Assembly: GCA_009781445.1 (NCBI GenBank)
Contig: WQYD01000002.1
Span: forward strand, 17,792 to 81,791
Length of the DNA: 64,000 nt
From: Bacillota bacterium
GTDB taxonomy: Bacteria > Bacillota > Clostridia > Christensenellales > DTU072
Direction: 5' to 3'
The position numbers and the translations under genes are program-made. Under the pieces are notes generated by a model. That model made no database searches. It was given only the letters and a program-made list of their open reading frames with translations, and was not told the origin of the DNA. Numbering within the stretch: the stretch's first letter is position 1; each line of letters begins with the position of its first letter. Positions 22,177-54,894 of this stretch are shown piece after piece.

Positions 22177-22183
22177 TAAGTAT

Positions 22184-22212
22184 AGTATACGGGGTTTTAA
22201 GCAAAATAGCAA
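22184..22212 (-). promoter_or_regulatory. Candidate promoter TTGCTA-17 nt-TATACT, 7 nt upstream of the LRR lipoprotein ATG
   Basis: The minus strand reads TTGCTAttttgcttaaaaccccgTATACTatacttaATG, with no Shine-Dalgarno. Confidence 0.4.
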
Positions 22213-22220
22213 GAGAATTT

Positions 22221-22340
22221 TCAGCGCACAGCGCACAGCGCACAATGAAGGATTAATTCAGAATTAAGAATTCAGAATGCAGAATTATGGATTAATTAAC
22301 TAATGAGATTTAGAATCCACCATTGTGCGCTGTGCGCTGA
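22221..22340. repeat. Modular heptamer-array repeat cluster in the divergent promoter region
   Basis: Reverse GTGCGCT x3 array (22221-22247), reverse CTGAATT-type array, linker TTAATTAAC, and anchor ACTAATGAGATTTAGAATCC (22299-22318) with a GTGCGCT x2 array (22321-22340) complementary to the first array. Confidence 0.9.
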
Positions 22341-22571: not shown

Positions 22572-25500
22572 ATGAGAAACACAAAAAAACTTTTCAAATA
22601 CATAGCCTTGGTTTTGGCTCTGGTTGCGGTACTCAGCGTTATCGCAGGTTGCTCAAGGCTTGACGATGCGCGAAGCGACCCTGCGGGGAATATTCAGCAA
22701 ACCCCCACCGATCCCCCTTCTACCGACACGATTAATGTTGTAAGACCTACCGCCGCGCGCAACGCTATGAACGCGGCACTTCGCAACAGAACGAACAAAT
22801 ACGCCCCGAAGAACAATTTGCCCGAATGGTTCGTGATAGATTTGCAAATGGACTTTAGGATAGACAGATACGGCACCCCCTTAGTGCAAACCCCCACCTC
22901 AAGTTCGTCTATCAGGGTTATTTTGCAGGCGAATGTACATATTTTAAACAATAACTTCAGCGAACTTAAGCTTGAAATTTATAACAGAATTCCCACCACA
23001 ACGCAAACTTTTGCCCTTTATTATCTTGAAAAATCAGCCTACATTGAATTAGGCGCGCCCCAAGACAGGCAAAATTTTTACATAGAAGAAATTAACTTAT
23101 CCGAAGCCCTCGGCATGGTGGGCTTTATGCTTGCGGATATGGGCATAGATCCTGCTCAAATCTTTGCCGCAATGATGATTAGCACGCAAGCCACCTTAGT
23201 TCCCACGGGAATAGCGTTCTTGGATGAAGGTTTAATGGCGATTGTCGCAACGCAGATGTTTGATGCGGGGCCGAACAGTGCGCGCGAAAGAATCCGCAAT
23301 TCAGGCGGAACGGAAACGCGTGATTATGGGCTAAGGCTTACTCTTGCAGGGCTGCTTAACATGGTTGACGGCATGGATTTACTGGGCATTAAGATTGACC
23401 TTAAAAATATTTGGGGTATAATGGGCTTGCCGAATCTTGATCCGCTTTTAAATGAATTTATAGGCACGGACATAGGCGAAATCCTTAGCTTCTTGCGAAA
23501 TTCAGAGGACGCCTATATGTGGATGCTAACAAGCATGGAGGACGATGTTCCGAGGACGGAATGGAATGCGTCCGCGGGGCAACACCAAATCGTGTACGAC
23601 GGCGCAGGGCAAGCGGTTACGCACAAAGCCCCTGTGTACACGGGAATTGCGATAAACTTACCCGGCAGGAAAAGCCCCACTTATCCTAAGGGGCAATTTG
23701 ACATTGATATTTACGCGCCCTCGGTAAGGGCGTCCATGGCGGATAGAAAGACGCAAATTTGGTTTCCTGACAGGCTTACCGAAAGCGCAAAAGGCACTTC
23801 GTACCAAAAAGCAGGGCTTGGAAACCTTGAAATTGAGGGCGAATTCAGCATTCAAAGCGATCCTAACGGTGTAATCCGTTTAAATTCCGTACTCGGAACT
23901 ATGATTGATTTGGGCGGAATAGGCGAAATTCCGCTATATTTCCCCAAAGAAGGTGCGGTTTACACCTTCACAATGAATTTAAAACTCGCGCTTGATTTCT
24001 TTAATCCAAGCGGTACGCGCGCGGAGGCAATTATTTATTTTAACGATACGGATAACCCTCAGAACAAGCAACCCTTCCTTGCGCTGTCTATTGTTAACAA
24101 TAGGCTAATGATTGATTGTAGCAAACTTATAGATTTCGCAACTTACAAACAGCAAGCCCCCAACTTCGGGCAGGGGCAGGTTCCCCCTATTCCGCCGTGG
24201 CAGATTTTGCCTAACATTTCCATGGAATTTAGCATAAATTCCCTGCTTGACGGGCTTTTAGGCGGGCTTTCAAACATTTTAGATCCTAACTTTATCCGCT
24301 TGCCTATTGCACCGCAGAACAGCGCACCGCAGAACAATGCGGAAGAGGAATCGGGCGGGCTTGATATAATGCTTCTTATAAGCATTTTGGCAGGGCATTA
24401 CCAAGTGTATCCGCAAAGCGGAACTGAGAATTTAGTGCGCGTGTTTGTGGATAACAAGGGCATTAACGACATTCTAAGAATGCTTGGCATGGATGTGGGC
24501 AGTGGCGGTGTCGGCTTTTCTGAAATTGAATTTTCCATGTTTTCTAACGATCCGCTCAATACGATTGTTTTGCGCGCAGGCGTAACGGAAGAAGTTGATG
24601 TGGTTTTAAGGCTTACAAAATTCGGCTGGTTCAAACGCCCTGTGTTTGAAAACGCTTACATAAGCGATCTTGCGTTTGTGAACCTTGATGACGAACGGAT
24701 TCAGTTTATTAACCTTGAGGCTTCGGGATATTTCCAATTCGGAATCAATGAAACCAGTAGCGGAATCGTGCTTGATTTAGACGATATCGTGGGGGATATT
24801 CTTAGCAATGTAATGTTCTCACTCGGCGTAACCGAAAGTGCGGATTTCACGATAAGATATGATCTTAAAGCAGGAATTAACTTTAGAAACGCGCTTGAAT
24901 CGGGCTTATCCATAACTTTTTATATAAGCGATTTGCCCTTCCTCACCATTTATTTTGAAGCATCCTCGGATACGCTGTTCCTTGATTTTTCAAACCTCTC
25001 AAATTTGAAAACAGAGATAACCGCGCTTGCTTCCATAGGCACGATTGATAACATTAAGATAACAGGCGTGGGCATAAGTTCAATCTTAAGTTCGCTACCG
25101 CTTATAGGGGACGGCGGTTCAAACGCACCCAAAAATGCACCGATTCACCTATCTTCCACCCCTCAAGGCGTGGCGGTGGACGCACTTCTTAACTTAATTC
25201 TTGGCGCAAATCCCCTTTACTTCGCGCTTGCGAACGCAGATGCCGAAAATGAACCTGACGGCGGATTTGATTTAATGAGTTTGCTAATGGATGTTTTAGG
25301 GCAAGGCATAACGGTTGAGATCAATGACGAAATTAAATCCCTAATTATCCGTGCAGACGAAGATTTGCTTACAATCCTCGTTGCCATGCTTGGCGCAACG
25401 GCGAATATGCCCAAAATTGCATTTGCAATGAAACTTCAGCTTATCGGCGTGGGCGATCTTGACGATAACGGCTATATAAGCGTACACTTCAAGCTGTTTG

Positions 25501-28076
25501 ATGACGGCGCGGAAACGGCAATGCTTTTTGCGGATATCGTGCTGATTCAAACGGTAAGAATCCCTATTTCACGCACAGCCCCCGTTTATTTCCCCGGTTC
25601 GTTCACCCCTGGGGAATTTAAAGAACTTGACGATTATCTTGCTTCGCTTGTCCTTGCTTTCCACATTGAAGGCAACATTTCGGTGCTTGCGCCCGATAAT
25701 GATATTTACGAATCCGAACTTGTAAACGGAATGCTTGCAGGGATACTTCCCATGCTTGCAGTACGCTTCGGAATAGACGGCTTTTCAATAAACTTGCAGT
25801 ACGAACTGAAAATGATTGCGCATATTTCCGATGTTTTGGCAATTTTTAACGCAATTTCAGGCAGTGGCGAAGTTCCCGAACATTTAAATACCGAACTTTC
25901 AATCACCCTTTCGGATTTGGATTACGGCGGACGCGTGTTCGGGCTTTATATAATAGATAACAATGTTTATTTAGAACTTGATTACTTCGGTGTTGAAAAT
26001 GTTTCACTCAAAGGGGCAGGTTTATTCTTAAACGAACTGTTTAAAATGTTTGCCTCAGACGAAAGTGAACCTATAAATAAAGACGATCCCGAAAACCGTG
26101 CAATGTACCCCATTCCCTCTAACGGCGCAAGGTTTGGCACAGGCGCGGACGCGCTTCAAGGCATTGTGGTTCTGCTTTCGCCCGACAGAGTTGCTTTACA
26201 TATCGGCAAATCCGCAATTTCCGCCGTTCTCGCGCTAATGTTTGAGGATGGTTTACCCCTTGAAATCCACGGCATAAATCTTGCCGTTGATGTTTCAAGA
26301 GGCATAGCGTTAAGCATAAGCGTGGGCATTGAGGTTTTTGAAATCTCGCTTTCGCTTAGCGATTTATTTGTTTTATTTGAAAAAGATAAGCACATTGCAG
26401 GTAGCAATTATCCTGTGATAATGCTTCCTAACGATAGATTCCCCGTCCCAAGCGGGGACGGCGGAATGCCCGAATATGTGTACATTAAGTTTGAAGGCGA
26501 AATGTTTATAAGGGCAGATCAAACCGAATACGGTGACGATAGGATAATTATAAACACAAATATAAACCTTACCCCCGCCGTTAAAGCAATTTTCGGTGAG
26601 GATATTGATCTCATTGCATACCTTGAAATGCTTGGTGTGGTTGAGGGCAGAATTGCCATTGTTATTGAAGCCTCTTTAAATTTAACGCACTTTGTGAGAA
26701 GCGCGGCGCGGATTGAACTTTATTCGGGGGATACCACCCAAAATAACCGCATTTTAAGCGCGCAGTACAGAGGGCTTGAGAGGATTGATCCCGAAACAGG
26801 CGAACCAAGGGTTTACGGCGATTTATTTATAGATACAGACGCATTTGAACTCGGCAAACTTTGGGTGCAGGATGTGGGCGCGCTTATAAATGTGTTCCTT
26901 GGGCTTGAGGACAGGGATTTTGAATGGGGCGACATTGTGGGCGGTAACCCTTCCGCACCGCGCTATTCCCCTCTTTCTTCGGACGAAGTTATGGCTAAAA
27001 ATTACCTTGATATAATGTTTATCAGGGGCGGAATTTCGTTCGCGCTTACAAAAGGCTTGCTAACAGGCTTAATGCTAAGCCTCGGCGGATTTGATTTAAC
27101 CGAATTCTTTGAAAATGTGGGCGGACGCGATGAGGTTGTGTACGGCGAAATTCTAATTAGCCCCATAACCCTTGCACTCGGTGTTCACCTTGGCGGAATT
27201 GAAGCGGGGCTTAACCTCGGCAGGCCTGAATTAGTGTTTGAAAGGCTTGTGCCGATGCCCAGCGATATAGACGAATATACCCTGCTTTTAAGCCTTGAAA
27301 GGCTAAGCATAACCCTTAGCGGTGCTATTGATTTTGCGATTATTTCTGATCCTAACGGCACATATTTTGATCACATTGTGTTTGAAATAAAAGAAATGCT
27401 TGCTTTGTCAGGCACTTTTGATCAAGCACTGCTTGACAGTTTGCTGAACTTTGGCATAATCCTTCAAATTATTGCAGATTCATTCGGTGATACGCGCTTT
27501 GGCGGTGTTCTTAATTACGAAATAGAAGTTCATGTTAACTTGCTTGATATAATAGACGATTTATATCTTGCATTAAGGCTTTTTGTGTTAGACGGTGATT
27601 TCCGTACAGACATTTTGGGGCTTTATATAATGCCCGATCCCCGTGAAGGCGCAGGGCTTACCCTGCTTCTTGACGCGGAATTCCTTGGGATTGAAAAAAT
27701 CCGTGTTAACGATGTGTTCGGCTTTATTTCCGCATTCACAGGGGAAGACGGTTTAGAAAACGAACCAAACGGCACTGCCCCCAAGAACAGCGGTTTACCG
27801 CAACTGCCAAGAAACGCTTCCGCACCTGAAATTCTATCCGCCAATGTGCTGATAAGAATAGCCTCAGATCCTGCCCAAATCGCGCTTAACAAAAACGCGC
27901 CTATTCTCATAAGCATAACCGAAAGCGCGTTTTCCGCGTTGCTTGAATTTATGGATATGGGAAGCATTTTAAACCTGCTTGGGGTGCATAAGCCGTGGGC
28001 AGAAGTTTCGCTTGCAAGCGGTGATAGCCTGCTTTCCTTGGGCTTGGGCTTAAAGATTTGCTTTCGCTTACGGTAA
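22572..28076 (+). CDS. Giant modular lipoprotein, part 1 (signal peptide plus modules 1-6); probably the N-terminal portion of a protein of about 8,560 aa
   Basis: The ATG at 22572 follows AGGAGA. The signal reads MRNTKKLFKYIALVLALVAVLSVIAGCS (lipobox IAGC). It contains six copies of the unnamed module of about 300 aa (hydrophobic-Y/F-hydrophobic-D core at 23040, 24108, 24978, 25968, 26826, 27669). It stops at 28074-28076 in the middle of a module. Confidence 0.75.
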   Translation: MRNTKKLFKYIALVLALVAVLSVIAGCSRLDDARSDPAGNIQQTPTDPPSTDTINVVRPTAARNAMNAALRNRTNKYAPKNNLPEWFVIDLQMDFRIDRYGTPLVQTPTSSSSIRVILQANVHILNNNFSELKLEIYNRIPTTTQTFALYYLEKSAYIELGAPQDRQNFYIEEINLSEALGMVGFMLADMGIDPAQIFAAMMISTQATLVPTGIAFLDEGLMAIVATQMFDAGPNSARERIRNSGGTETRDYGLRLTLAGLLNMVDGMDLLGIKIDLKNIWGIMGLPNLDPLLNEFIGTDIGEILSFLRNSEDAYMWMLTSMEDDVPRTEWNASAGQHQIVYDGAGQAVTHKAPVYTGIAINLPGRKSPTYPKGQFDIDIYAPSVRASMADRKTQIWFPDRLTESAKGTSYQKAGLGNLEIEGEFSIQSDPNGVIRLNSVLGTMIDLGGIGEIPLYFPKEGAVYTFTMNLKLALDFFNPSGTRAEAIIYFNDTDNPQNKQPFLALSIVNNRLMIDCSKLIDFATYKQQAPNFGQGQVPPIPPWQILPNISMEFSINSLLDGLLGGLSNILDPNFIRLPIAPQNSAPQNNAEEESGGLDIMLLISILAGHYQVYPQSGTENLVRVFVDNKGINDILRMLGMDVGSGGVGFSEIEFSMFSNDPLNTIVLRAGVTEEVDVVLRLTKFGWFKRPVFENAYISDLAFVNLDDERIQFINLEASGYFQFGINETSSGIVLDLDDIVGDILSNVMFSLGVTESADFTIRYDLKAGINFRNALESGLSITFYISDLPFLTIYFEASSDTLFLDFSNLSNLKTEITALASIGTIDNIKITGVGISSILSSLPLIGDGGSNAPKNAPIHLSSTPQGVAVDALLNLILGANPLYFALANADAENEPDGGFDLMSLLMDVLGQGITVEINDEIKSLIIRADEDLLTILVAMLGATANMPKIAFAMKLQLIGVGDLDDNGYISVHFKLFDDGAETAMLFADIVLIQTVRIPISRTAPVYFPGSFTPGEFKELDDYLASLVLAFHIEGNISVLAPDNDIYESELVNGMLAGILPMLAVRFGIDGFSINLQYELKMIAHISDVLAIFNAISGSGEVPEHLNTELSITLSDLDYGGRVFGLYIIDNNVYLELDYFGVENVSLKGAGLFLNELFKMFASDESEPINKDDPENRAMYPIPSNGARFGTGADALQGIVVLLSPDRVALHIGKSAISAVLALMFEDGLPLEIHGINLAVDVSRGIALSISVGIEVFEISLSLSDLFVLFEKDKHIAGSNYPVIMLPNDRFPVPSGDGGMPEYVYIKFEGEMFIRADQTEYGDDRIIINTNINLTPAVKAIFGEDIDLIAYLEMLGVVEGRIAIVIEASLNLTHFVRSAARIELYSGDTTQNNRILSAQYRGLERIDPETGEPRVYGDLFIDTDAFELGKLWVQDVGALINVFLGLEDRDFEWGDIVGGNPSAPRYSPLSSDEVMAKNYLDIMFIRGGISFALTKGLLTGLMLSLGGFDLTEFFENVGGRDEVVYGEILISPITLALGVHLGGIEAGLNLGRPELVFERLVPMPSDIDEYTLLLSLERLSITLSGAIDFAIISDPNGTYFDHIVFEIKEMLALSGTFDQALLDSLLNFGIILQIIADSFGDTRFGGVLNYEIEVHVNLLDIIDDLYLALRLFVLDGDFRTDILGLYIMPDPREGAGLTLLLDAEFLGIEKIRVNDVFGFISAFTGEDGLENEPNGTAPKNSGLPQLPRNASAPEILSANVLIRIASDPAQIALNKNAPILISITESAFSALLEFMDMGSILNLLGVHKPWAEVSLASGDSLLSLGLGLKICFRLR

Positions 28077-31000
28077 CCGTGAATACCCCCGTAATGGAAG
28101 TTAACGGTAGCCTTGACACATTTATTGTGCATAACGAACAAGGCAATATCGTGGGCGGTGTTATTAACGACACAAGTTTTTACACTATAAACGAAAATAA
28201 CGAAGTTATAAAAATCAAAGTTGAAATTTCGGGTGAACTTTACTTTAAAGCAGACGATACCGTGGGCGCGGTTATAGACGATAACGGTGATTTAATTCCC
28301 GGCACGGAAATTGATTTATCAAGAGTTATCCAAACCATACTCACGAACACAGAAATCGGCGTGGTGCTTAAAAACGCTGGCTTTGAAGATAAAAAACTTG
28401 GCTTTACCCTTAAGGCTTCTGTTAACATTATGGATTTAATCCTTAACGGAACGGAAGCTATGGAACGCATGGAAGTGGTGTTCATAATAGACGCGTACGA
28501 AGGCAGTACCATTACCGCCACAATAGCGGTTTATATTGAAAGAGGAAACCTTTATGCAGATTTTGCCGATATTAACCTTGGAAAACTGCGCATAGATAAT
28601 GTAATGGACTTCCTTGGCGATCTCTCAGGCGGGCTGGGCGGGCTTATGGGCGGTTCGCAAACCGCAGGGCAAGTGAACGCACCGCGCAGTTCGGCGTACA
28701 GCATGGCGGAAAGGGGCGCAATGGCACGCATAAGCCTGCAACTTGGAAATAACCACGGATTAGTGGTGGCAATCTGTAGCGATGTTATTGCGGTAATGCT
28801 TAACGCATTTGCGATTCCTCAGCTTGAAAATGAAAAATTAGGCGATTTATTTAACGAAATAACTTATAATTCTTTCCGCCTGCAAATTGATGTGGCGCAT
28901 AGTGCCATGGCAGGGCTTAAGCTAAATTTGGGGCAATATGAAGTAGGCGTACAGCTTAACGAAGTTACCCTTCATTTCAGGCGTACGGAAATGAGTGAAC
29001 TTGCACGCCCTGTTAGAGATAGAGATACGGGCGAAATCCTTATAGCAGGATTTGAACCTAACGATTATTTACCTTTAAGCCTTAGCGCAATTCACATTTC
29101 CGTTTCCGCATTCTTCGGTTGGGAAATGGATGACGGCACAGATTTCAACCTTGCCGAAGCATTGCAAGGGCTTGATATTATGGGCTTAAAAATTGAACCT
29201 ATTCTTAAAATTATAGGCGCGCTTGGCGCAAAGTTCAGGCTTGATGTTGATCTCAATTTAAATCTTGCCGACTTAATGAATGACGCCATTCCTTTTGAAC
29301 AAAGGTTCAAGAGTTCGTCTATGAGGATTCAAATGCACGAAGTAAGCACAGGCGAAGCTATGTATGTGCTTGCGATTCACTATGTAAACGGGGACTTATA
29401 TATTGATTTAGAGGCTTTCGGTATCCAAAAGGTGCTAATTGAGGATGCCGTAGATTACTTTATATCATTTTACTATAACCTAACAGGCACGCCCACAGGT
29501 AACACGGCAGTTCCTATGTACAGCGCAAGCGGTGCGCGCAATATGCCCAATGTGAATGCTGTTGCTTCGTATATTAACCTAATTTTCTGCCCCGAAGGAA
29601 TCGTGCTTAATGTGGGTTCGGCAGCTTTATTTGCCGTGCTAAGAATGATGTCGCTTGACATTGAAAGCTACATTGATCCAGTGGGTTACATTGATATTAA
29701 CGCAACTCTATTCGGTGCGGAAGATGTGTTTGAACTTGAGTTCGCGCTTTATTCCAAGCAATTGAATTGCAGTGAAGCGCACACGCACGGCGCGCTTTGC
29801 AATAACGCTGTTAAGCTTTTCCTATCCTTTAGCAATTCTTACGAAATCAGCTTCGGCATTTTGGATAGGCACATTATCACACCGCCAAGCGGTTATCACC
29901 GCATTGAAACAAGCGCGCCCACCTTGGGCATAGGCACAAAAATTGTGTTTGAAGCCTTTGCTTCTGAGGACGGCGAAATTCTTAACCTTTATAGAGAACC
30001 GCTTGAATCCTTGGTGGCGAATCTGCTTTCGGACATGGAATTTATAACAGAGGATTTTTTAAGTTTCATTCAATCCATCGCAATCACCATTTATTTCGGT
30101 GTGGTTCAAGAAACGCACGCGGTTTTTGAAATGGATATTTTAATTAACCTAAATGTTCTTGATCCTTCGGGCATTAACTTACAAATCACCATGTTCGTGG
30201 TTTCCACAGACGCGATAACAAAGCAGGAAACACGCACACGGATAATGCAATTTAACACTTACTTTGAAAATCTTTACATTGATCTTTCGCCCATAGGCGG
30301 GCCTATGTTCTATGTGGAAGAATTTGTGCCTATGGTTCTTGGGGGGCTTGACGGACTGCTTGGCAACCTGTTCGGCGGTGATGAGGACGGCGCAGATCCA
30401 AGCGCACCGAACAATGCACCCAAAAACGAACCAAGCACACCTTACGGCATAAGAATGCCTCTTGAACTTCAAATTAACGAAACAGGTTTATTTGCTTACG
30501 CTTACAAAGAAGCGTTTAACGCAATCCTAACAATGTTAAAAATGGAAGAGCTTGCAATGTTTGATAAAATCACCCTTGATTTGCACGCGATTCCTGAAAA
30601 CAACGCACTCACCCTCGGGCTTGGCATAAGCATTCGGGACACGGGCAGAGATGTAGACGATATCAGCATAGGTTTTGACTTAAAGGGCTGGCGGGTAAAC
30701 TTTGAACCTTGGGGCGAAAACACCTTGATTATTCCCAACCCCGATAAGTACGAAATCGGGCTTAGCGAAGTTCAAACCATTAAATTATCCTTGCAATTTG
30801 AAGTGGGCTTTAGCCTTGACGAAGGAAATATAATGCTTGAAGCCCTTTACGAAGTGTTGCTTAATCCGCAACTCACAGGGCTAACTTCCACCCTTCCTTA
30901 CGCTTTAAGCCTCGGCAACCTCGGGGATACCCTTGTGGTTGATCTTGACGCTATTGTTGAGATAGACGATTTTGCAAACCTCTTGAACACGGTTCAATTA

Positions 31001-34000
31001 AGAATATCCGTTTATTCTAAATCAGATCCGCATAGTTTCAGAATGGATATTTATTACCACCGCGGTAACCTTTATGTAGACGGACGGTTTATAGGGTTAA
31101 CCCAAGTAAAAGTAGACGACTTCATGGGATTTATTGAATTCTTCGGCAATATGTTCGCTGGCGGTGGCGAAGAGGACGAAGAACTTTCAAATAGTGCTTC
31201 CCTTGCAAGCAAGGTTTTGGCACTTGAAAGCAAAATGAAAAATGCGCCTGCAAACACACCAGCGTATCAATCCGCCTTTGATCAAGCCATTCACAGAATG
31301 TACATGATTGAAATTCTGCTTGGCGCGGAAACTGGGCTACTTGTTCAAATGGGCGCGAAAATGTTTGAGCTTGCGCTTCTTGCGCTTGGGCTTGAACTTG
31401 ATCCTATGTCAATGCTTGCAGGAATCGTGGCAGGACTGGACGATATTCCTGATGACGACAGAGAGGAATATATTAAGGAATATCTGCAAAACCTCGGCAT
31501 AAACACGGATATTATTCAAGTAAGTGAGTTGCTTTTAAAGATAGCTAACCCCGAACTTAACTTAAGGGTTACCCCTGATTTAAATGCGTCAATCGGCTTT
31601 AAACTTACGGGCTTTGTGATGCACGATTGCAGAAAGAACAACATTTGCGCAGGCACGCTTTGCACAGAGTACGGTGTGGTGGAAGCAGACGGCGGTTCTC
31701 TTGGAATGCACCTTGGCATAAATCTTCCTGCCACAAGGCTTTCCTTCTTTAGGAAGAAAACTCACTCTTCAGCACCCCCCGCGGATTTAATTTCTCAAGC
31801 GGAAATTGCACAGTACACAAACTATTCTGAATTAAGCGTGTACACAGAAATCAATATGAGTGCCACGCTTGAACTGCATGACGGCAGAATCACGGCAGAC
31901 GGGCTTATCGGCGCAGCTTTCCAAATCTTGGGGCTTCCGGGTGCGCTTGAAACGGACATCGTGTTTGCAGGCGGTTACGAACAAATGATTATAGAAATCA
32001 ACGGACGGTTGGGCATAGACTTTAAAAAACTTATGGATCCCACTCTTCCGCAAAATGTAAGGCAAAACGCGCTTGTTGCCTCACTTGAAATTTCTTACCA
32101 TATTATTGATCAACACGGCAAAGATAAATCCGATTCATATTATAGCCACACGCTTGCAAGCGCGTACTTTATAGATAACAATGTGTATTTAAGCATAAAG
32201 CTGTTTGATTCGGTGGTGGATGTGGTTCTGCCTGATATAGACATTGCCACATGGATGTTTGAATTCTTTGGCATTGCAAAATCCGAAGAGGACGGGGACG
32301 GCAACCCCATAAGCGGTTACGGTTCGCCTCAAAGCCTTCAAAACGCTTCAAAATCCCCCTTGCACGCAATGGGTGAGGGCTTTAAGGCGGTGGGCGCAGG
32401 GGTAAATAATTTTGATACCATTAGTTCGGTTATCATGCTTAATTCAAGCGGATTAACAATTTTATTAACCCAAAACCTGCTTGTGGATGTGCTTGAATTC
32501 CTGCGTTCGGTAATGCGTGCTTCGCAATCCGCCACAGGGGAAGCCATGCTTGATTTAGAGGGCGTGGATTTCAGGGCGATTCTTGACGAAGTTTTAACAA
32601 GTGCGTCCCTTGGCGTAGTGTTTAATGAAAAAGACGGATTTGCCGTTAAATTTAACCTGTTTAAGGATCAAGAAACGCGTTCTTTCGGCAATTCCATGTA
32701 CCAATCCGCAGGATATGACATTACGCTTTCACTGCTTCATAACACAGCGTTTTCCACGCATAGATCGGATTACGATTCCTTCTATCACTTCCTCACAGTG
32801 GGCAATATAGCCGTTGATCCCGAACACCCCGATTATTTCAACATGGTTGAATATAAACTTGGTTGCTTTGATATCACCGATGTGGCATGGCGCATTACAA
32901 TGCAGGTAGAATTCTTTTTGGGTGCAGACTTCAGGGCTTTCTTACTTAATTGGTCAGGGCTTGTGTCTGCCATTGATCCCACTTCCGCTTTCTATATTCA
33001 GTTCCTTGAAAGAATGAGTGGCGATGTTATCTTGAGATTGCATTTATCCACGCTGTTCACCGAAATCGGCAGATTCGCGCTTGATTTGATTCTTGAATTT
33101 GTGGATGGGGACGGCAATGAGATTATGACGCTGTTCTTCGTGGGCAACTTGGACAGGACTGGAAATAACCCCAATTATGATTACAATAACATTGATCCCA
33201 AGCTATATTTAAGGCTTGCAGGCGTGCCTGATCAAGATATTGAACCCATTGGAATCGCGCTTGACGCTGATTCGTTCATGCACTTTGCAAACCTTAACTT
33301 AAGAGATTTCTTTGACGCCTTTAAGGTGGACGAAAACGGTGCTTCCCCCGCTTCCTTACAGTTTCAGCCCGATCCCGATAATGACGATGAGGGCGATGCA
33401 GTTGCCGCATGGTGGGCAACACTTCTTGAAAGCGTTGTGTTTAACAAGGGGCAAATCGTTATCGTGGTTGCAAAAACCGCACTTCAAACGATTGCAAGCG
33501 AACTGCTTGGCTTGCCGTTTGACGAAATCGGCAGGGTTTCGCTTACCATTGATATGATAGCAGGGGTTATTCAAATAGACTTATCCCTTGATAATCAAAG
33601 AGATGTGGAAACAAGCGATCTTTACAGTGGCGGAATAAGCTATTCCACATTCGGCGGTAACCATTGGATTGATAAGGATTATATGAACGATCCGTCCTTA
33701 GTGCAACCGATGCAGGACGCAGTTAACCTCACAATAGCTTCCTTTAACACACAAAGAAACGGATTACCCGCACACATAGTGCTTGCGGAAATGACTGCTA
33801 ACCGCTATAACATTTGGAACCAAAGTTTTGCAAGCGCAGTGGGATTCACTAAGGCTACCGAAGAAAGGTTCTATAACGGCAGAATAGTAATTATCACGCA
33901 CATTGAAAATGAAGCCCTTGGAATGCGCGGTGCGCATATGCGCTTAAGTAACGGGCTTGTGGTTATGCTTTTCCAAGAGGAAACAGAGTTCCCAAGTAAT

Positions 34001-37000
34001 ATTTCAAGGCGCATTACGATAAATGAACTTGATGTGGGAATCCTTGCGGTTTCCGAAATCACTTATGCACGCCCCGAACAGTTTATTCCGCAGTTGATTG
34101 ATCCTGCTTTCCCTGCATTTGATCCCGGAATCGGCGGTTGGGAATTTATAACCTCATTTGCAAGCGAATACACCAAAAAGTATGACGATAATGCTACCAC
34201 AATGAAAGATGTTTATTACTTCCTTTACGGCGGTGTAACATTTGAAATGATTTCGGAATATGTGAAACTTCTTGAAAGGGCAGACTATTATTGGATGCGC
34301 GATCACGCGGGCGTTTGGCACCTTGAAAAGAATAAAACCGTGTTCCAAGCTAATTGTGCAGTTTGCGCAGGTTGCTTAAATTATGAAGCCTGCTTAAGCC
34401 CGATAATTGTAAGCGGAAAGGGCGAAAGCATAAATGTGCTTATTAAACTTATTTGGAATGAAGCAAGCGGTGTTCTTCAAATGGCTGTGTACGATAACAG
34501 CAGTATGTTTAACTTCAAGTTCGGCATGGCTTCCATAAATGTGAAACTTGCCGTTCAAGATATCTTCCGCGCGTATGTTCCTTATGCTTATAAGGACGAT
34601 TTTACCCAATACTTTGATTACTATTTCAGCCCCTTTAACAGCTTTAAATGGGAATTTGAAACTGGAATTGAATTTACGGCAGACGACACTATCGGCGGAT
34701 TCTTTGATGCCACTTCCCTAATAGGAATGGTGGTGGGCATGGTGCCTGCGCTTTCTGCGTTCGGGCTTGAGGATATTGCTTTCGGAATCCAACCGGGTGA
34801 GGCGTTAAGCGTGAGAATAGGCTTAACCCTAAGAATGTTTATAGACTTTAAGGATCTTGAAAAGCTAAATCTTCAATTAAGAATGACTTATCAAGGTAAC
34901 GAAGTTATGCTTATTACCTACCAAGGCAGGATTAACAGCCAAAATGAGGAAGAAAGCACGCTTTTTGTGGATTTAACAGGGTTATTCACACAAAACCCCG
35001 ATGCCACTTCTCACGCAGTAGCCTTTAAGATAGAAGATGTTATGCTTGCAGGGCTTGTGAAAGGCATGATGGGAAGCATAAATCTTAGCGGAATCGGTTC
35101 TTCGCTTTCGGATATGATTGGCGGAATCGTGGGCGGTATCGGCGCAGACAGCAATAACAGCGCAAATAACGGTGCAAGAAGTGCTTCGCAAAATTCCGCA
35201 AGAGGGGAATATTTACCGCTTGAAGATATTATTGATTTATCACAAATCACATTCGGAAACGCGCTTTTACTTCTAACCATGGCAAGCAACAATGTTACGC
35301 TTGCAATCACAGGCGCAATGGTAGTTTCCGCTATGCAGTTCTTATCGGGCGGGGATATGAGTTTACCCATGTTCAATAACCTTGAAATCGGTTATGCAGA
35401 AAATGTAATGGAAAGAACCTATTACAGCGAAATTACCGAAAGGGATTCCACTACCACGCATAACACCGAAAAACTTAAAGCAGTTGCCACAAGAAAGGCG
35501 GATAGTTCTGCCGTTCTTGTGCTTGCAAAGAGGGCTAATAATATTTGGCTTAATGCTGAAAGGCTTGAACTTAGCAACATAACCGAACAGCTTACTTACA
35601 GGGGCAGGGTTTGGGGTTCAGTGGCAGGGCTTTACGATCTTTGGATAGGCGCGCCTGATTTTGTGAGGCAGGTTACCGCAATTTATTCCTACCCTGCGGA
35701 TGCAGGTTGTGCGGGCTGTTCGGATTGCACTGTGTACCACATTGTGTTCAGGGCAATAACCGATGCCACTTGGGAAAATTACTTAAAATCACTTGAAACC
35801 GCCTTTGTGGTTGAAAGCAAAGTAGAGGGCAGAGATTTAGCAGGGTTAATGCTAAGGCTAACAAACGATACCCCTTATGAACAAGCATTCCGCTTGGGGC
35901 TTAACTTTAGAGGCGGATACTTTGGCTTCGGCACAGGAATCACTAACAGGATAACCGTTGCCGATGTGGAAAGATATGAGGATATTTCAAGCCTTAAAGA
36001 AATAGGGCTTACGCTTGACGCGGAATTAACAATAAGAACAAGAACCCCCGAAAATGAAAAATCCGAACAGATTCAAATGCTTGAACAGCTTATTGAAATC
36101 ATGCTTGGCATGGCACCGGGGGCAATTGATCTTGACTTGCAGGACAGCACGGTTATCTTTGGATTATCACTTCGCCTTTATTCAAATATCGGCCCGATAA
36201 CTTATCCAGACGGAACTGCCTATAAACAGTACGAAGCAACCACGCTTCAATTGATAATAACATTTAACGATTCACCGCTTTTCGTGATTTATTACTATGC
36301 AACCTCTAACACCGTATATATTGATTTAGATGGTTTGGGGCTTTTCCGTTCCGCAATTAACGGTGTGGATTTAATGGCAATCCTTGGCGGAATGCTTAGC
36401 GGATTCGTGGGTGAAAACGGAATAGACTTAACTTCGCTTTTAATGGGCGGTGGCGGTGAAGAGGATTCCGAAGAAAGCGGTTCAGGCACCCAAAACCCTG
36501 CAAGCCCTAAGAATTCGGCACTAAACCAAGAACTTCTAACTGCACAGGATTCCGCGCTTGTTAGGGTGCTTTTCACTAACGAAGGCTTTACAATTAACCC
36601 TAACGCAATGTCTTTAGCTAAATTAGTTACTGGCATTATGCCTGATATCGGCCCGCTTCTTCCTGCGTTCCCCGATATAAGGATTTCCACAAGCGTGGCT
36701 TCGGGGCTTAATAACCTTTCCGCAAGGATAAGGGTGGATAACCTTGGCAACCGCGTGCAGATTGATGTGGCGGAAGACGGCTTCCTATTCGCCGTGGGCG
36801 GTGCTTCAAGAAGATTCCGTGTGCCTGAATTAAGCGAAAGCCGTTTGAACACATTCGGCGGAATCGTGGGCGCAACCCTTACGGCAAATAATCAAGGTGC
36901 TATGGTTATGGATATTGACACCGTAGCCCTATTATCCACAATTGTAGATACCATTATGGTTAGGAACTTAACCATTTATCTTGATCACAGGGCAGATTAT

Positions 37001-40000
37001 TGGTATTTGAGAAACTTAAGGTTTGATATTCCTAAATATATTAACGGCCCTACCTATTTCGGCACGGATATGTTTGCAGGCTACCAAAAGGCGGATCAAC
37101 CTTTCGGGCTTTATCCGTTTGCAAATGTGGATCTTGGTTGGCTTGAAAATATCCCCCTCTTGGGCGGATTGGCAGGCCCGCTTAAGAACCTTGGTATAGG
37201 CTTAGATTCCTATTCACCTATGCTTATTAAAAACGGCTATAGGCGCATAAGGCTTCAAGTAACCAAAACCCCCAATAACGCAATTGAGGCACGGATAGAA
37301 CAGCTTACCGCAGTTCTCGGCATAGATAACCTTATCCCAAGCCCCGAAGAAGATTGGATTCCCATGCGTGCAAGCGCGTTTATATCGGATAACATTGTGC
37401 GCCTAAGGCTTGGCACTGCGCTTGTTCTTGATATATCGGGCATTATTGAATGGCTGGGCGGAATAATCGTGAGGGCAGTGGGCGGAATCTTCGGGCCTCT
37501 TGGTTCAACCATTTCAGGATTGGCATGGTCTGCTTTCGGCCCATATATCTCTCAATGGCTGGCTGGGCTGGTGGGCGATATTTCGGGCTACGGCAACCCC
37601 TTAGCTTTAGGGCAGATTATAGACGATATTACGGGTGGCGGTATAGAAGTATTTAGAATGTTTATGCCTGATCTCTTAAAGCCAGACAGTGACGAAAGCC
37701 AATATGATTACGGCACGCTGTACGGCATGGTTACAGGCAGGGACGGCGCACCCATTCAAGGCGCGCGCGTAACCATTTACACAGCAGGCGCGCTTATTAC
37801 CTCAGGCGCAGGCTATAGCGGTGGCGGTTCTGTGTACACCACCCTCACGGATAAGGACGGATATTATGCGTTTATCAATGTGGGTGCAGATGAATATATT
37901 ATCCAAATTTCAAAGATTGGTTACGCAGATTTAACCATGGCAGGGGACGGCGAATTAGACGAAAAGGTTAATGTACGCCCCTTTACCACCCACCCTGCAA
38001 TGCGTTCGGATTACATTTTGCGCCAAGAAAGCGAAATGGAAATCTTTACCGATATCACAATAGTGGTTCGCGTGCAAAGTTCGGCAGGTTCAGGCACTGT
38101 ACCCAATGTTCCTGTGTATCTTGATAACGGCATTACCCCTCTTGGAAGCACAGACTCAAGCGGTTTGCTAATCAGAATGATAGGCACGCTTTCAGAAGGG
38201 GTTTACAAAATTGCAGGAAGCAGGCACTTTATCAGGCTTGGTAACGGACAACGCGAAGAATTTACCATAACAAGCGCGGATAACGGCAGGCAAATTCAAA
38301 TTAACATAGTGTACGCAAACCCCGGTTCGGGCATTATTGCAGGAAGGTTAATGACATATAACCGCGAAAGCCTGCTTAACGGCACGGCAGGGCTTAGTGA
38401 ACTTCAAAGGGTAAGGGCAGGCGCTTCCATGCTTGTGGGTGCGTGGAATAACGAACTTACCGCAATGGGCATAACAGGCGAACAGGGCATAGTTTGGGGT
38501 TCAATTCCCGCCACCAGAGAGTATTATAAGGATAGCCAAGGCGTTATTTATGCGGTTATTCCAAATACCACCAAAGCACAGCTTGACAGCGCAAACACCG
38601 CTACCGCAATGGGTGGCAGGTATAATGCAAGAACTTCAAACCATGTTACTGGCGGAATCAATTACAGAAACGGCATAATTTACGAAAGCCGTTACTTCCC
38701 TCAATCCCAAGTGGCGGTTATGGCATTTAAGCGGGCAGAATTGGTGTCTATCAACCCTGCCGATGTGGAAATTTGGCTAACCATAAACGGAAACCTTTCT
38801 TCGGGCAATAACCTTAACTCAAGCACAAAAACCATAATGCAATCCCATTCGCATAACGGCTTATCAAATAGGTTCTGCGTTTCTAACTGCGAAAACGCTT
38901 GCGCAAACCCTCAAGATCAGAATTGGTGCCAAAAAGGTGAGGGCGATAGGATTGAAGCCACCGTTATCCCAAGGAATTATCTTGTGTACGGCGAAAGAAA
39001 CGGGCTTTTTGAGGAAGCACCGAATGTGGACGGCAACGGCTACTTTGAGATTAGAGATTTAGCACTAAACACAAACTATATGCTTAAAATCCGTTCGCGG
39101 ATTTATAAGAACCAAGACGGGGTTCGCCCGTGGGTAGCCACGAACATTAACATATTAGCAACTGAAGCTTACCGCTTAGCAGGCGGGGACGGCATTATTA
39201 TCCTTGAACCGCGCCCCCCTCACTGGACAGAACAAGAGGAATCAGACGGCGGTATGCTTTCCGCAGTGGGCAACATGATTTCAAGCGTGAGAATCCGCTT
39301 GGGTGCAGATATATTGGATAAAGGCTATAACAGCAACGATATCGGCATTCCAAGAACAACTTACGATTACCTCAATTCATTGGGCAAAGATGTTCTTGGC
39401 ACACTAATGAACACAATCCCCGGAATACTTGAAGCAATCCTGCCCAATGTTCCTTTCCTTGGCACTGTTACTGGTTGGCTAACCGGTTGGGGTTCGGGGC
39501 AACTCGGCACAGGGGACAAGAGTGCTTATCTTGACGAAAAGAATATGCCCACTTTCGTGCCTTGGTCTCATTACATTACAGGCTATAAGAAAGGCGCGCA
39601 GGATAGGTATGACGGCGTAACTTACATTGAAATTTGGCTTAACCCCACATTCATTACAGGAATGTTTGATATGGTTCACGGAATGCTGTTCCCCATGATG
39701 GGCATGGAACCGATTTCGCAAGATCAACGCTGGACGCAAGGTTCAACAAGCAGAGTGCCAGACGGCGTAACAGGCACAGGCGGATTCCTTGGAATCTCAC
39801 GCGATCAAAATATTGATAACTTTAAATATAACGGCGCGTTTAATGAATTAAACGATCTTGTGGTAAACCACCCTAACGGCGCACTCTTTAATTATAGGGA
39901 AGAGGCTTACAGCGGTAACAGATCGGAAACCCGTGCATTAGGCATGATTTATGATTATGTGTACCCCACAAAGGAAGCGTATACCATGAATATGCGTGCC

Positions 40001-43000
40001 TCTTCCGCCTCAATTCCGGGGGGTGTGGTAAGTTTTGCCATTAACATGGCATTTGATATGATCCCTGATTTCTTCCAAAATGACTTCCTGCGCATGGTAA
40101 TTCAGTACGCAGCGGGTGCGTTCCTTGACGAACAATTGGATATGGTTTCCCGCCTTATATCCCACCTTGTGCCGTTTGTATACCCTTATTCCATGATGGA
40201 AGAAAGGCATTTTGAAAATTCGCCCTTAATGCAGAATTCGGTTTCGTCTACCACAAGCGAAAGTGTGAAAACCAATGTGGCACAAGTTTTAAGGAATGAA
40301 GGCATTGTTCCTAACGGACAACCCGATTTAGCAGGCAATATCGTGGTGAATCCCGCGCCCAACACGGCGAATCCTCACCTTGGGCATATTTCGGATTCAA
40401 ATGAACTTCTTAACGGAACTTACCGTGAAGTTGATTTCCACGATAGATCGGTTTACGCAAAAGTAACCTTAAACACTGATTCAAACGCTATGTTTGAAAG
40501 GCTTAACTTATTTATTAACGGTGCTTCGTACAAATTTAACGAAAATGAAAGAGGCAACAAAACCCTTCCGGGTGAAACCTTGGCTACTTACACGCCTTAC
40601 ATTATCGGTGAGAATATGTACGCGCCTAACGCAACCATTATGCGTGCGGATACCATAAGGTATGAGGTTAATTCAGAGGGCATAAGCGTGCCGATTGCTT
40701 CGCACAGGGTGGCGCATAACGCAATCAATAAGTGGATTCGTTCAAATGTGGTTAATTCTTTCGTAATCGTAAAGGATTATCAGTACAGTACAGACGAAAA
40801 TATGAACACCACAAGAAGGCTTATCGCAGTAACCTATATCCGTGATGTTTATGGGCATTTTGATGCGGAAGAAGGGTTTACGGATTGGGAATTTAGCGTT
40901 GCCACATTCACACGCGCTGAAAACCAAGGCGGTAGAGGCTTAACCGTGCAAGATGCAGAACTTGCCATGAGCCTATATTCCGCTAAAGACGATTTCTTCT
41001 ATGAAATTGATTTCCACAATTCAGGAATCCGCTTAAGGCATGTGCTTCCTGTCCCTGCTGGCGGTGGCGGATTTAAACTTGTGAAGGATTCGGGGGGCGG
41101 GCCGATTTGGGACGGTGACGAATCCAAACCAATGACGATGCCCTCTAAGATTATATTTAACGATCCTTATAATCCAAGAGATTTCACCGCAATCGGCGGA
41201 ACATGGGCAGGCGCATTGGGCGCACGGCATAACCTTGACGAAAACGGCGTTTATAGCGAAGATTCCGTTACCGATATCTTACCCAACCGCTTTATGGCAA
41301 ACTTCAGGGACGGCGATGCCTCTGATTCCTCAGGTGTGCAAATTTACTGGGATTTCTCACTGGTAGATTTCACCCCCACAAGGGAAGCAAAGCAATCCTT
41401 TATTGTGGGGCGTGTGGCTAACCAAATCGCAGGCGTGAACAGCATGGGCGAACTTTCCATAATCCATGCGGAAGTTCTTGGCGGTATGGTGGTTAACCCC
41501 TCAAGCACCTTAAACCTGAATGCAGACGGTTCGGCAGTGGATACAAATAACACCAAGCAAGCAATCAAACTTGACGATATTGATCCGCTTAAATTTGATT
41601 TGGCACAGTATATCAAAAATCTGCCGTCCTCATTTGATTACACTTATGCAATGGTTTATGAGGTAAACGGCAATAAACAGCAAATAAACGGCAGTGATGT
41701 TCTTTACAGGCGGTATATCTTTAATGATTTAAAATGGGATTTATCTCAAACCGATTTCAACTATGAGGGCAGAGAAAGCTATGCAAGGCTAACTTATAGC
41801 TTTATAAGAAGTTCGGACTATGGGCATGAACCCACCCCTGTAACCATAAATGTTCCTATTAGATTCATAAATAGGGAAATTAAAGGAATCACCGCACCTA
41901 TTCCAAGCGGAAACGGGCTTAACATTATGCTTGAAGAAGGGTTTGACGGCTTAGGTAATCCTATCATTCGCAGTGTAATGGAATTTAACCCCTTACAGCA
42001 CAACGATCCAAGGGGTTCTATTGAAAGGCTTCTTGGACTCAATGTGGATGTACTTTGGGGCAACGGGCAAACTTCACCGTGGCAGGTGCTTGGAATCAAT
42101 GCTAACGCTTTCAGCAATTATGATTCAAGCAGGCACGAAATGCAGGAAATCCCTGTGTACTTCCTATTTGAGGACGAACTTGGGCTAACCCAAAGGGTGG
42201 AAATCACCGTACGAATCCTTTCCAAGACTATTGATCAAGGCTTAACGGATATCGGCTACGGCGAACTTTACCCCGATCCTATGTATAATAGGGTTAAAGA
42301 TATTTATCCGTTTGCTAATAATGGGCTTGAACTTCCCACTTCGTTTGAAGCGGTTTACACAAGCGGATTAAGCGAAACGCTTTTTGAGGGTGCTGATTTT
42401 GAGTGGGACACTGAGGACATTTCCGCATTAACCTATAGGTTTAGCGGAACTGAATCCCTTCTACCGTTCAAGATTTTCCCCATAAAGGCAATAATCGGCG
42501 GTTCTTCGCAAAGCAGGCAGGTTATAACCGTGTACGCAAGGGTGTTCCAAATGATTCCCCGCATAACGGCGAACCCAATTGTTATTAACCCTTACGGCAA
42601 CGGCGAAGTTCCCAATACGCTTAACCTTGACTTTAGCAATGTGGGCGGAATGCACGGCGCAGGAAACTTCTTTAGTAAGCCTATAAGCAATGTGTACTAC
42701 CTCTTTAACGATTCAAGGGCGCACATTGATTATGACACAAGAGTGATAGGCGGAATTTCCTATAAGCATAATATTGTGTTTAACAATATGTCCTTTGCTG
42801 GTGAAGATTATCAAACGGATATCCTGCTTTATGACGAAGTGTTCGGCAGGTTTACTATTAGAAATGTACCTCTTCATATCCGTGCCACTGAAATAAGCGG
42901 TATGGAACTGCCTGCAAGCGTAAAGGTTAACCAATACTTTGCAAAAACCGATATTGATAGCTTGCTTGCCCACGAAGATGTGAAACTTGTGGTTTCCTTA

Positions 43001-46000
43001 GAATCTTCCGCAGGCGCAACCCCCGATAAGGTGTCAAGGGCATTCTTTGATATTATAGGTTGGGAATATTTCCACGGGCATGACGGCGGGCTTGCTTCTA
43101 ATCCCCATGCAGTTCCGCTTTCCTCTTGGATCACGGTAACTGTGAGGTTTAAGAGTACAGGAAGAACGCAAACATTCAATGTGGATTTACTCTCTCACCT
43201 TAATAACCTTTCGGTAAGAGGGCTTAAAACAGAGTCAGAATCTATAAACAATCCGTTCATAACCCAAGGCACAGGCGGAAGTTTCGTGTACACGGTTAAT
43301 GATCCCAGAAACTTCACATTCCCCGATTTATTAGAAGTTTGGTTTGAGGATAATGCAGTCAATGGAAACGCGGAAGTAAGCAAATTAGTACCCGTAACCT
43401 TTGATTTGCGTACCCAAAGGGACGATTTCTTTAAACTTCCCTCTATAGAAGGCACAATAAGAACGGGTACTCACGCATTAAACTATAAGGAATTTAATGT
43501 GATATTTGTAAACCAATCCGTGCGTACCGTTCAAAGCGTTGAGTTTTTATCGGGCAGTAACCCCTATAATCCTGATACGCTTTACGGATTTGACGAAGTG
43601 CCTTTGCCCACGCACGCAAGGGTTAATTTCGCGGGTGGCAGTTCTCTCACATTTGATAACTTAAGCTATCTTAATATCAATGCGCCAAGTGCAAACGGCG
43701 GAACATTTACTGCCACCGTGCTTATCGGCGACAATGTGTTCGGCTATATTGAAGCACCTCTAAGCGTAACCGTACTTCCTGAAACCATTGTGGAATGGCG
43801 CATTGGAAACTTTAATGAGGTTAACGGCGAAATTAAAAATGTTAACCCCTATCTTAATGTTAGAGAACAGCTTGAAAATGAAATCAGCCCCAGCCTAACG
43901 GTTTATACCTCAAGGGGCAGAGTGCTTACGCTAAACACTAAATATCCTGATATTCCTTTAAGCTACCTGCAAGAAACAACTCACAGAGTAAGTTTTGAAA
44001 TCGGCAGAACATTCACGGTTAATAACTTCGGATACCCCCGCGGAACGCAAACCGCGTACGAATATGACGCGCGCGAAACCTTTATAATCAATGTAACGGT
44101 GGAAGCAAGGGTTGCTGAGGGTATTGAATTTATTGATTCTTTCGGCGAAGCGCATTCAGTGTTTGTGGGCAATGTTTATAATAAGATTGACTTCCCAAGC
44201 CAAATCACCGTTGTGTTCAGAGGCACAGAACCTATGGTTCTTGATGTGGTTTGGGATACTTCGCGCGTGTTCTACTCATTTATCGGCGGTAACTATTCGG
44301 TAAGGGCGCATATCGGCGAGGTTGGCACGGCTAATTATCAATGGTTTGATGTTCCCGTGAGAATAATGCCCTCATACCTTATAGCCATTGAACTTGAAGG
44401 CGGATTTAATTCCGATATCTTTGTTCTTGACAATGACGGCAAGGGCATAAAAGGTTTATTAGTTGATCCTCTTGTGGGCTTTAAGGGCTTGCCCGAAACC
44501 GTGGGCGCAGTGCTTAACGATAACACAGGTAAAGCGTATAGCGCGCTTGTGGAATGGCACTATTCAAGAATTAGGGATAGAGTATCCATGAACGGCGTTG
44601 CTTTAAGCGAAGAATTGATGCTTGTGGCAGAAATTTATGTGCTTGAAGAGGTTAACGGATTTATGATTCGTTCTGCAAGGCAGTTTATTGAAATCCCTGT
44701 GGAAGTTATTGATAGAACTGTGGTTGAAATAGTGGCAACCTTTAAGCAGGGCGATCTTGCCCCCATAGCTTTATATAGGGACGGCGATGTGGTTAACAGC
44801 TTCACACTTAACCCTTACCAAAGGGCGTACAGCGAAATGTTTGATTCGCCTGACTTTGCTTACTTTGGCAAAATCACCTTAACAGTGAAAGACGGCGCGG
44901 GTACAAAGCAAGTGGAAGTAATGCTTAACCAAGCAAGCCAAAGGGCAACGGATACGCGCACAAACAGCCTCGTAAGCCAAAATAACCTTTACAGTGGCAG
45001 AGATATTCTCTTAAGGCTAAGTTTTAACGCAGGCGAAACCGATTCCGCTTCGCGTGGGGCAGAATTCAATATGCAACTAAGCGTAACGATTCTTGATATG
45101 AGTTATGCTTCGGGGCTTGCTAAAGACGCTTACTTCGTGGATATTTACGGCATTGTAAACCAAATCTTTATGAACGGCGAAATGCGCGAAGTTACCGCGA
45201 ATTGGCAGTTTGTAAACGAAAACCGCACTATCACAGGTGCTTCGGGTGAAACGCACCTTGTATCCGTTACCTATAACGAAAGCGATGTATTGTGGACGCT
45301 TGATTCGCGCGGTAATAGGGATAGGGAAATCAAATCAGGCAGTGGCACAGGCTATTTAAGAGTTTCTATCGGCAATCAATTCGGCGGATATGAGCAAGTT
45401 CTTGTGCCTGTACATTTCATTGATAGGGAAGTTGTTTCCTTATTTAACCCCGAAACCACACCTTACTTCGGGCAGTTCAGAACTTCGCCCACAAGCCCGA
45501 TTACGGTTCAAGGCTTTATCTTTGATCCGTTTGAAGCGTACGATATAAGCGTTTATCCGCAAAAAGGCACAATTTCATTCGCAAACCAAATTGTGGAATG
45601 GGGCATGGTAGGCGGAACGCTTGGCGCGTACGGCTTTACTATTGAATGGAATGATTCCTCTGTGGCACGCGTTGTAAGTGGCGGTTCGGATTCAACCGTT
45701 ACAGCACACATTACTTCGGTAAGCACAGGAATAAGCCAACGCGTTTCATTCAGGGTTAAATTCCTTAACCGCACCGTGGTGGGTTATGACGAACTTCTTA
45801 AATCGGATACTCTTCTTGAACACTTCTTTATTGAACCTTATAAGTATCTGAATGTAAACGATATATCAAGAGCGATTGCAGACGATATCTTTAAATCCGC
45901 AGGAAGTTCGTTCAATGTCCGCTTTACCGAAGGGCCGGATATCCGCTTCACATTCGGTGGCAAGGCTTCTAACTTCACGGTTGATCCTAATAATACTTGG

Positions 46001-53667: not shown

Positions 53668-54015
53668 ATGAAACGACTTTTTGTTAGCACAAGCATATTT
53701 GATAAGGATTGGGAATTTCTTAACCTTAGGGATAAAGAACTTAAATTGCTACAAGAAACTATATTGTACGACCCAAAGCAAGCGCCAGTAATTCAAAAAA
53801 CGGGCGGGCTTCGCAAAATGCGCTTTCCGCTTCCAAACAGGGGCAAGAGCGGAAGCATTAGGGTGATTTATGCAGACTTTGAAGAATTTGAGATTACTTT
53901 CCTAATTACGGTTTATGCTAAAAACGAAATGGACAATATTAGTGAAGAGCAAAGGGTAAAACTAAAACGCTTGTATGACGAACTAAAGAATGTTTTAAAA
54001 GGGGGCAGAAAATGA
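53668..54015 (+). CDS. Type II toxin, RelE/HigB-like (toxin-first gene order)
   Basis: 115-aa ORF with GGLRKMRFPLPNRGKSGSIRVIYADF ... ITFLITVYAKNEMDNISEEQ, the pattern of RelE-superfamily (PF06296-like) toxins. It overlaps the antitoxin by 4 nt. Confidence 0.75.
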   Translation: MKRLFVSTSIFDKDWEFLNLRDKELKLLQETILYDPKQAPVIQKTGGLRKMRFPLPNRGKSGSIRVIYADFEEFEITFLITVYAKNEMDNISEEQRVKLKRLYDELKNVLKGGRK

Positions 54016-54314
54016 ACATAGGCGATAAAATACAAAAAGGGCTTGAAGAAGCAATAGAATTTGCAAAAGGCAACACAAAATTAAAAACAACAACGCGCGC
54101 AATACCAGATGTTAGGTGTTTTTCTGCTACCGAAGTAAAAGAACTTAGGGAACATTTGGGTTACACGCAATTTGCTTTTGCAAAAATGCTTGGTGTTTCA
54201 AATAAAACCGTTGAAGCATGGGAAAGCGGGAAAAACACACCAAGCGGTTCGTCAAGCCGTTTATTAGAATTGTGGCAAAACAGCCCCGATATGATGATTA
54301 GGGCTTTCGCATAA
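54012..54314 (+). CDS. XRE-family HTH antitoxin (HigA/MqsA-C-terminal-like)
   Basis: 100-aa ORF. LREHLGYTQFAFAKMLGVSNKTVEAWESGKNTPSGSSSRLL is a classic XRE helix-turn-helix. It is translationally coupled to the toxin. Confidence 0.75.
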   Translation: MNIGDKIQKGLEEAIEFAKGNTKLKTTTRAIPDVRCFSATEVKELREHLGYTQFAFAKMLGVSNKTVEAWESGKNTPSGSSSRLLELWQNSPDMMIRAFA

Positions 54315-54480
54315 AGCGCATTAAATGCGTTGCAGTTAAATTCACTTCGTGAGTGAAATTTGCCTTACGGCAAGTGTAGGATAAAATCCCAAATAGAACC
54401 CCAAAGGGGTGAAATGTGCATAACCCCGTGCAAGCGGTAGCGTAGCACGGGGCAAGACAAAGAAACACGGATAGAAACAC

Positions 54481-54519: not shown

Positions 54520-54553
54520 GATTTGTGTGGGTTAGCTGTGCAAATCGCGCCTG

Positions 54554-54700: not shown

Positions 54701-54704
54701 AACT

Positions 54705-54890: not shown

Positions 54891-54894
54891 TGAG

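Follow-up and report, generated by a model that had tools for sequence, protein, structure and literature searches.

A 64,000-nucleotide (nt) stretch of the Bacillota contig WQYD01000002.1 (the window) contains two overlapping open reading frames, ORF1 and ORF2, that are the two halves of a single gene encoding an 8,561-amino-acid (aa) lipoprotein-anchored surface protein. In the assembly this gene is short of one nucleotide, net, somewhere within positions 28037-28055, and we infer that the interruption is very probably unprogrammed. All coordinates refer to the whole window and its forward strand, and "fused" denotes ORF1 and ORF2 joined at a K/D junction. The public proteins are labelled P0001 to P0009, where P0001 is ORF1, P0002 is ORF2 taken from ATG 28094, and P0003 to P0009 are homologues.

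The reading frames at the junction define where the interruption can lie. A start at 22536 is possible for ORF1, but ATG 22572 is more plausible as it is preceded by an AGGAG Shine-Dalgarno (SD) sequence. Counted from this ATG the product has 1,834 aa and is identical to the database protein MCL2629994.1. The -1 frame, in which ORF2 lies, is closed upstream by the consecutive stop codons TGA (28022-24) and TAG (28025-27), which set the 5' limit for any frame switch, and it is then uninterrupted from 28028 to the stop at 48254-56. In DNA of 43.6% G+C, it is far beyond chance that an open frame of 6,732 codons should begin within the final 16 codons of a different ORF. The first-pass annotation of this DNA had described the same arrangement, with the second frame open from 28028, the first stopping at 28074-28076, a 49-nt overlap and ORFs of 1,834 and 6,732 aa, and the frames bear this out. 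It had also named TTG as the only start codon of ORF2, which does not hold: the length of 6,732 aa is counted from TTG 28058, and GTG 28079 and ATG 28094 share its frame, the last being the choice of one public gene caller.

One line of evidence that the two ORFs were once one gene comes from homologous proteins. When 1.84 billion representative proteins were searched exhaustively by phmmer, a 1,200-aa fused query returned the window's own two products and seven homologues. Five of these are complete (P0003, 7,809 aa; P0005, 7,826 aa; P0006, 7,267 aa; P0007, 7,125 aa; P0009, 7,376 aa) and two are partial (P0004 and P0008), and all seven read straight across the junction as a single ORF. The five complete homologues are collinear with the fused protein in BLAST comparisons from the lipobox to the C-terminus. 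Single high-scoring segment pairs (HSPs) begin at fused residues 13-21 and end at 2807-4289, with the junction at 1840/1841 inside each. For P0003, which two independent assemblies both show as one ORF, fused residues 13-4289 match residues 1-3991 and fused residues 4431-8512 match residues 3991-7726. The proposal that a -1 change interrupts what was a single ORF of about 8,560 aa is thus supported by seven continuous homologues, five of them collinear at full length. The earlier annotation had pointed to orthologues as the place where a two-gene arrangement, with a good ribosome-binding site for the second gene, would become visible; the homologues show the opposite, a single ORF.

The position of the break was determined from the alignments. 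The multiple alignment has no gaps at the junction and displays a conserved motif, GLKDLL...P, which indicates a net deficit of exactly one nucleotide. In this alignment the window sequence reads ...SGDSLLSLGLGLK / DLLSLTVTVNTPVMEVNG (the LGLGLK side in short form is ...GLGLK / DLLSLTVTVNTPVMEVNG) and P0003 reads ...GESQEFIALKFNLKDLLAIKATIENPVLEING (in a shorter excerpt, KFNLKDLLAIKATIENPVLEING). The predicted fused junction peptide is ...SLGLGLKDLLSLTVTV..., which can also be written ...SLGLGLKDLLSLTVTVNTPVMEVNGSLDTF..., and the first-pass peptide ...GLGLK-DLLSLTVTV... agrees with the family consensus GLKDLL without a gap. The unshifted frame-0 product would end ...GLGLKICFRLR. When five homologues were compared with the window DNA by tblastn, two abutting HSPs were obtained, the first in frame 1 and the second in frame 3. 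For P0003, P0005, P0006 and P0009 the frame 1 HSP ends at 28055 and the frame 3 HSP begins at 28037; for P0004 the frame 3 HSP begins at 28049. The HSPs share CTTGGGCTTGGGCTTAAAG, which specifies LGLGLK whichever of the two frames is read, and the position of the missing base, or of the slip, can be narrowed no further than 28037-28055. A lost base upstream of CTTAAA, for instance TCC(C)TTGGG, was considered from a codon comparison of P0003 (CTT AAA GAC) with the ORF2 frame of the window (CTT AAA GAT). The comparison was rejected as evidence, as synonymous sites are saturated at ~34% identity. The features of the junction are collected in Table 1.

Table 1. Features of the interrupted giant gene and its junction.
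Feature	Position	Strand	Remarks
ORF1	22572..28076	+	first 1,828 residues of the fused protein, then a 6-codon out-of-frame tail (ICFRLR) and TAA (28074-28076)
Lipoprotein signal peptide with lipobox (...VIAG/C)	22572..22652	+	sole export signal of the fused protein
TGA TAG	28022..28027	+	upstream closure of the -1 (ORF2) frame
Overlap	28028..28076	+	49 nt, both frames open
Switch zone CTTGGGCTTGGGCTTAAAG	28037..28055	+	19 nt, LGLGLK in either frame; from homologue tblastn
C TTA AAG	28049..28055	+	non-canonical heptamer, one base off U UUA AAG; sole conceivable -1 slip site
ORF2 frame	28055..48256	+	giant residues 1829-8561; TAA 48254-56; one CarboxypepD_reg domain
Weak hairpin	28061..28100	+	12 pairs and one bulge, -9.2 kcal/mol, 5 nt after AAG

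The internal architecture of the protein also continues over the break. The fused protein is made up of modules of ~290 aa each that are weakly alike (~20% identity), and an iterated profile placed module starts at fused residues 1255, 1542, 1841, 2122, 2419 and 2678. These starts keep phase, so the period of ~290 aa continues across junction 1840/1841. The continuity suggested earlier from cores at 27669 and 28553 is upheld, both cores falling at the same profile position. A MAFFT alignment of the modules revealed a motif conserved among them, I..P..I.L..G.SA..AVL..M / ..L...V...VFE...SL, that spans the break. The ORF1 frame supplies its first half, IRIASDPAQIALN...ITESAFSALLEFM, the ORF2 frame supplies the rest, DLLSLTVTVNTPVMEVNGSLD, and as a whole the straddling motif matches unbroken copies elsewhere in the same protein. 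A tblastn search of the junction DNA with the gene's own modules gave no matches, the modules being too divergent. An AlphaFold2 model of the junction module built from eight sequences had a mean predicted local distance difference test score (pLDDT) of 51.9, too low for a fold search. This low-confidence model hints that the junction sits in a turn between two adjacent predicted beta-strands. The ~290-aa modules of the giant proteins appear to be beta-rich.

ORF2 lacks what a gene of its own would need. As had been claimed, the fused protein has a single export signal, the lipoprotein signal sequence MRNTKKLFKYIALVLALVAVLSVIAGC at the start of ORF1, and an equivalent N-terminal lipobox begins all of the complete homologues (5/5). 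The N-terminus of ORF2 has no hydrophobic segment and no signal peptide, the LPXTG motif is absent from the fused protein, no SD match of more than 4 nt is found at any candidate start in the first 150 codons of ORF2, and no promoter-like site was found upstream of it. The earlier statement that ORF2 has neither an SD sequence nor a signal peptide therefore stands. Its domain calls fared unevenly: Pfam finds one CarboxypepD_reg domain (E = 7.8e-9) as predicted, and no Big_4 domain at E <= 0.01. Searches of NCBIfam and of PDB profiles gave no match. Signal peptides of their own are carried by both of the genes that follow ORF2, at 48296 and 52809, and the one at 52809 has a G-rich SD sequence and a lipobox. 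Judging from these sequence features, ORF2 is not an independent gene.

The alternative of a stable two-gene split, in which ORF2 is made separately from TTG 28058, GTG 28079 or ATG 28094 by termination-reinitiation at the ORF1 stop, is considered highly improbable. Start codons do occur no more than 20 nt from the stop of ORF1, ORF2 is intact, and some genuine genes in the window are likewise without a recognisable SD sequence. However, a separate ORF2 product would have neither signal peptide nor anchor although the homologous region is extracytoplasmic in the relatives, the break falls inside the conserved module motif and, in the low-confidence model, between two adjacent predicted beta-strands, and no homologue is arranged in this way at the junction site.

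For one gene with a net loss of one base, the consequences can be outlined as follows. Translation from the ORF1 start would end six codons past the switch zone, at the TAA. As to origin, the sampled population may recently have undergone a real 1-nt deletion, or else sequencing or assembly introduced an indel. If the lesion is real, the cell would make a truncated 1,834-aa lipoprotein, and the remaining 6,733 codons, having no ribosome-binding site, promoter or export signal, would be essentially untranslated, save for trace spontaneous slippage or reinitiation. Both products lie on one 95,329-bp contig of a metagenome-assembled genome (MAG), which is the same contig in NCBI (FWD49_00550/...) and IMG, and a look-up of the exact ORF1 product found no contig on record. 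As only this single assembly carries the sequence, a real lesion and an assembly indel are not separable.

Several observations weigh against an accidental loss of one base. ORF2 is intact over its 6,732 codons, so that a real lesion must be very recent, or selection must still be acting on ORF2. No long homopolymer marks the break, as runs in the overlap do not exceed 3 nt, and ~370 runs of at least 5 nt in the window are without any other break. All of the housekeeping genes scanned (17/17) cover their Pfam profiles end to end. A simple homopolymer sequencing error is not an evident cause. The overlap also holds A_AAG, a context in which bacterial -1 slips are known to happen and of which ~0.05 would be expected in 16 codons. 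Finally, no relatives closer than ~36% identity were found. The window is otherwise clean despite its ~370 homopolymers, with no break in the 20 kb of ORF2 or in another ORF of 7.3 kb. Generic long-read homopolymer noise was for this reason judged an unlikely cause, and we lean slightly towards a real deletion, very recent or polymorphic, over an assembly error.

A programmed or compensatory -1 frameshift at C UUA AAG (28049-28055), in which tRNA-Lys re-pairs from AAG to AAA, perhaps aided by the downstream hairpin, is very unlikely. Its products would be the 1,834-aa lipoprotein as the major species and the 8,561-aa full-length protein as the minor one. The earlier annotation had noted T TAA AGA in the overlap together with the absence of a canonical X XXY YYZ heptamer, and both points are correct. 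The A_AAG is present, a slip there gives the exact family consensus GLK-DLL, the 0-frame stop follows 6 codons past the site, the 12-pair hairpin begins at a suitable spacing of 5 nt, and the ORF2 frame is fully open. However, as LGLGLK is coded in both frames, the agreement with the consensus does not single out AAG. C TTA AAG is all that the overlap offers in the 0 frame, and the P-site tRNA-Leu, once off UUA, would pair poorly with CUU. A canonical heptamer occurs no nearer than ~27967 (T TTA AAC), on the upstream side of the stops that close the -1 frame. The fused gene is rich in slippery-looking motifs that are in frame (35 canonical heptamers and 27 A_AAG; CTTAAAG occurs twice more in ORF2, at 30683 and 37679, and TTTAAAG once), so the occurrence of C TTA AAG is not significant. 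The A_AAG in the overlap is suggestive at most, since counting other motif types would raise the expectation of ~0.05.

The hairpin has a z of -1.64, with 11 of 200 shuffles folding as well, and its 82-nt context has a z of -0.65; it is weak and not significant against shuffles. Upstream, no SD-like stimulator was found, with no match of at least 4 nt to AAGGAGGTGA in 28038-28054, and no Rfam match was obtained over 27950-28250 at E <= 10. None of the homologues (0/7), which are no closer than ~36% identity, is shifted at the junction site, and a further homologue, on scaffold_537 of ENA ERZ16268175 (L004), is broken at other sites. Among the three alternatives of a real lesion, an assembly indel and programmed frameshifting, the last is the least supported. 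The more specific proposal that the deficit is real and fixed, and that tRNA-Lys slippage at C UUA AAG with the hairpin at 28061-28100 sets the ratio of 1,834-aa to 8,561-aa product, is very unlikely. If it were true, one of the largest genes of bacteria would contain a programmed or compensatory frameshift of recent evolutionary origin. A programmed event would be a rare chromosomal recoding event in a Firmicute, which the evidence does not support.

Bacterial programmed -1 sites include that of dnaX, A AAA AAG, and those of insertion sequence (IS) elements. A non-canonical A_AAG shift is known in Bacillus subtilis cdd, at CGA AAG, as cited in PMC5009743 (its reference B18). The window site resembles the dnaX, cdd and IS sites in having an A-site AAG after A, a 0-frame stop soon after and a possible hairpin 5 nt downstream, but differs from them in having no tandem-slippery heptamer, no SD-like stimulator, a structure that is not significant and no conservation in homologues. 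Another parallel is fucA1 of Sulfolobus solfataricus, a split cellular gene expressed through -1 frameshifting (PMC1616953). Like the window gene it is non-mobile and cellular and consists of two ORFs that overlap in the -1 frame and, once fused, match homologues of full length. In fucA1, however, the heptamer is the canonical A AAA AAT and the shift is proven by experiment, and the window site has neither.

Phase variation at a contingency locus, or transcriptional slippage, could in principle restore the frame in some cells or transcripts. Surface proteins are typical targets of the former, and a short tandem repeat, (CTTGGG) x 2.5, lies at the break. The repeat unit is however 6 nt long, so that a change in copy number preserves the frame, and no homopolymer in the overlap is longer than 3 nt. 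Slipped-strand switching and RNA-polymerase slippage need tracts of 7-9 or more. This explanation is extremely improbable.

The interruption of a single gene by a net loss of one base has a precedent in Staphylococcus aureus, in which the giant protein Ebh is split by a frameshift into ebhA and ebhB in strains Mu50 and N315 (PMC3868527). Both here and there, a Firmicute's largest gene for a surface protein is seen as two adjacent ORFs because of a frameshift and is intact in relatives, and the interruption in the window may be regarded as analogous. The window protein has no sequence relationship to Ebh and no Ebh domains in Pfam, and its anchor is an N-terminal lipobox. Additionally, the ebh split was verified in isolate genomes, whereas the split in the window is known from one MAG assembly.

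The window protein and its homologues form a small family of 7,100-8,600-aa lipobox proteins in Clostridia/Christensenellaceae MAGs, for which one CarboxypepD_reg domain is the sole match in Pfam, NCBIfam or PDB. Genome and metagenome scans with the window's own peptides gave no match, and scans with alignment A2 recovered the P0003 contig only. The L004 homologue is broken twice by -1-type frame changes, at ~511-577, in an A5 run (GATAAAAACGG), and at ~11750-11860, both sites being non-homologous to the window junction. Breaks in this family of giant lipoproteins are thus sporadic and not site-specific. MCL2629994.1 and MCL2629995.1 are best annotated as one interrupted 8,561-aa lipoprotein gene, and ORF2 should not be treated as a separate cytoplasmic "carboxypeptidase-regulatory-domain protein". 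MAG records often present giant genes as fragments, as this second, twice-broken family member illustrates, and giant-protein counts and size statistics therefore need frameshift-aware curation.

Several other large proteins are encoded in the window. These include a secreted protein of 2,433 aa with MBG_2 domains (2738-10039), a BspA-type leucine-rich repeat (LRR) protein (20071-22245), and a secreted protein of 1,509 aa with Big_2/Big_3 domains (48296-52825); together they form a cluster of large surface proteins. The gene for P0003 is likewise followed by that of a large Big_2/Big_3 protein. Farther downstream, a pair of short ORFs that overlap each other (115 and 100 aa; 53668-54314) resemble by eye a HigB/RelE-type toxin and an antitoxin of the XRE helix-turn-helix (HTH) type. 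Next to them is a 570-nt non-coding stretch (54320-54895) without an Rfam match that is dense in repeats and hairpins, including a hairpin of 19 perfectly matched bp (54480-54520), a direct repeat of 31 nt present three times, a 38-nt repeat present twice and two 14-nt tandem pairs.

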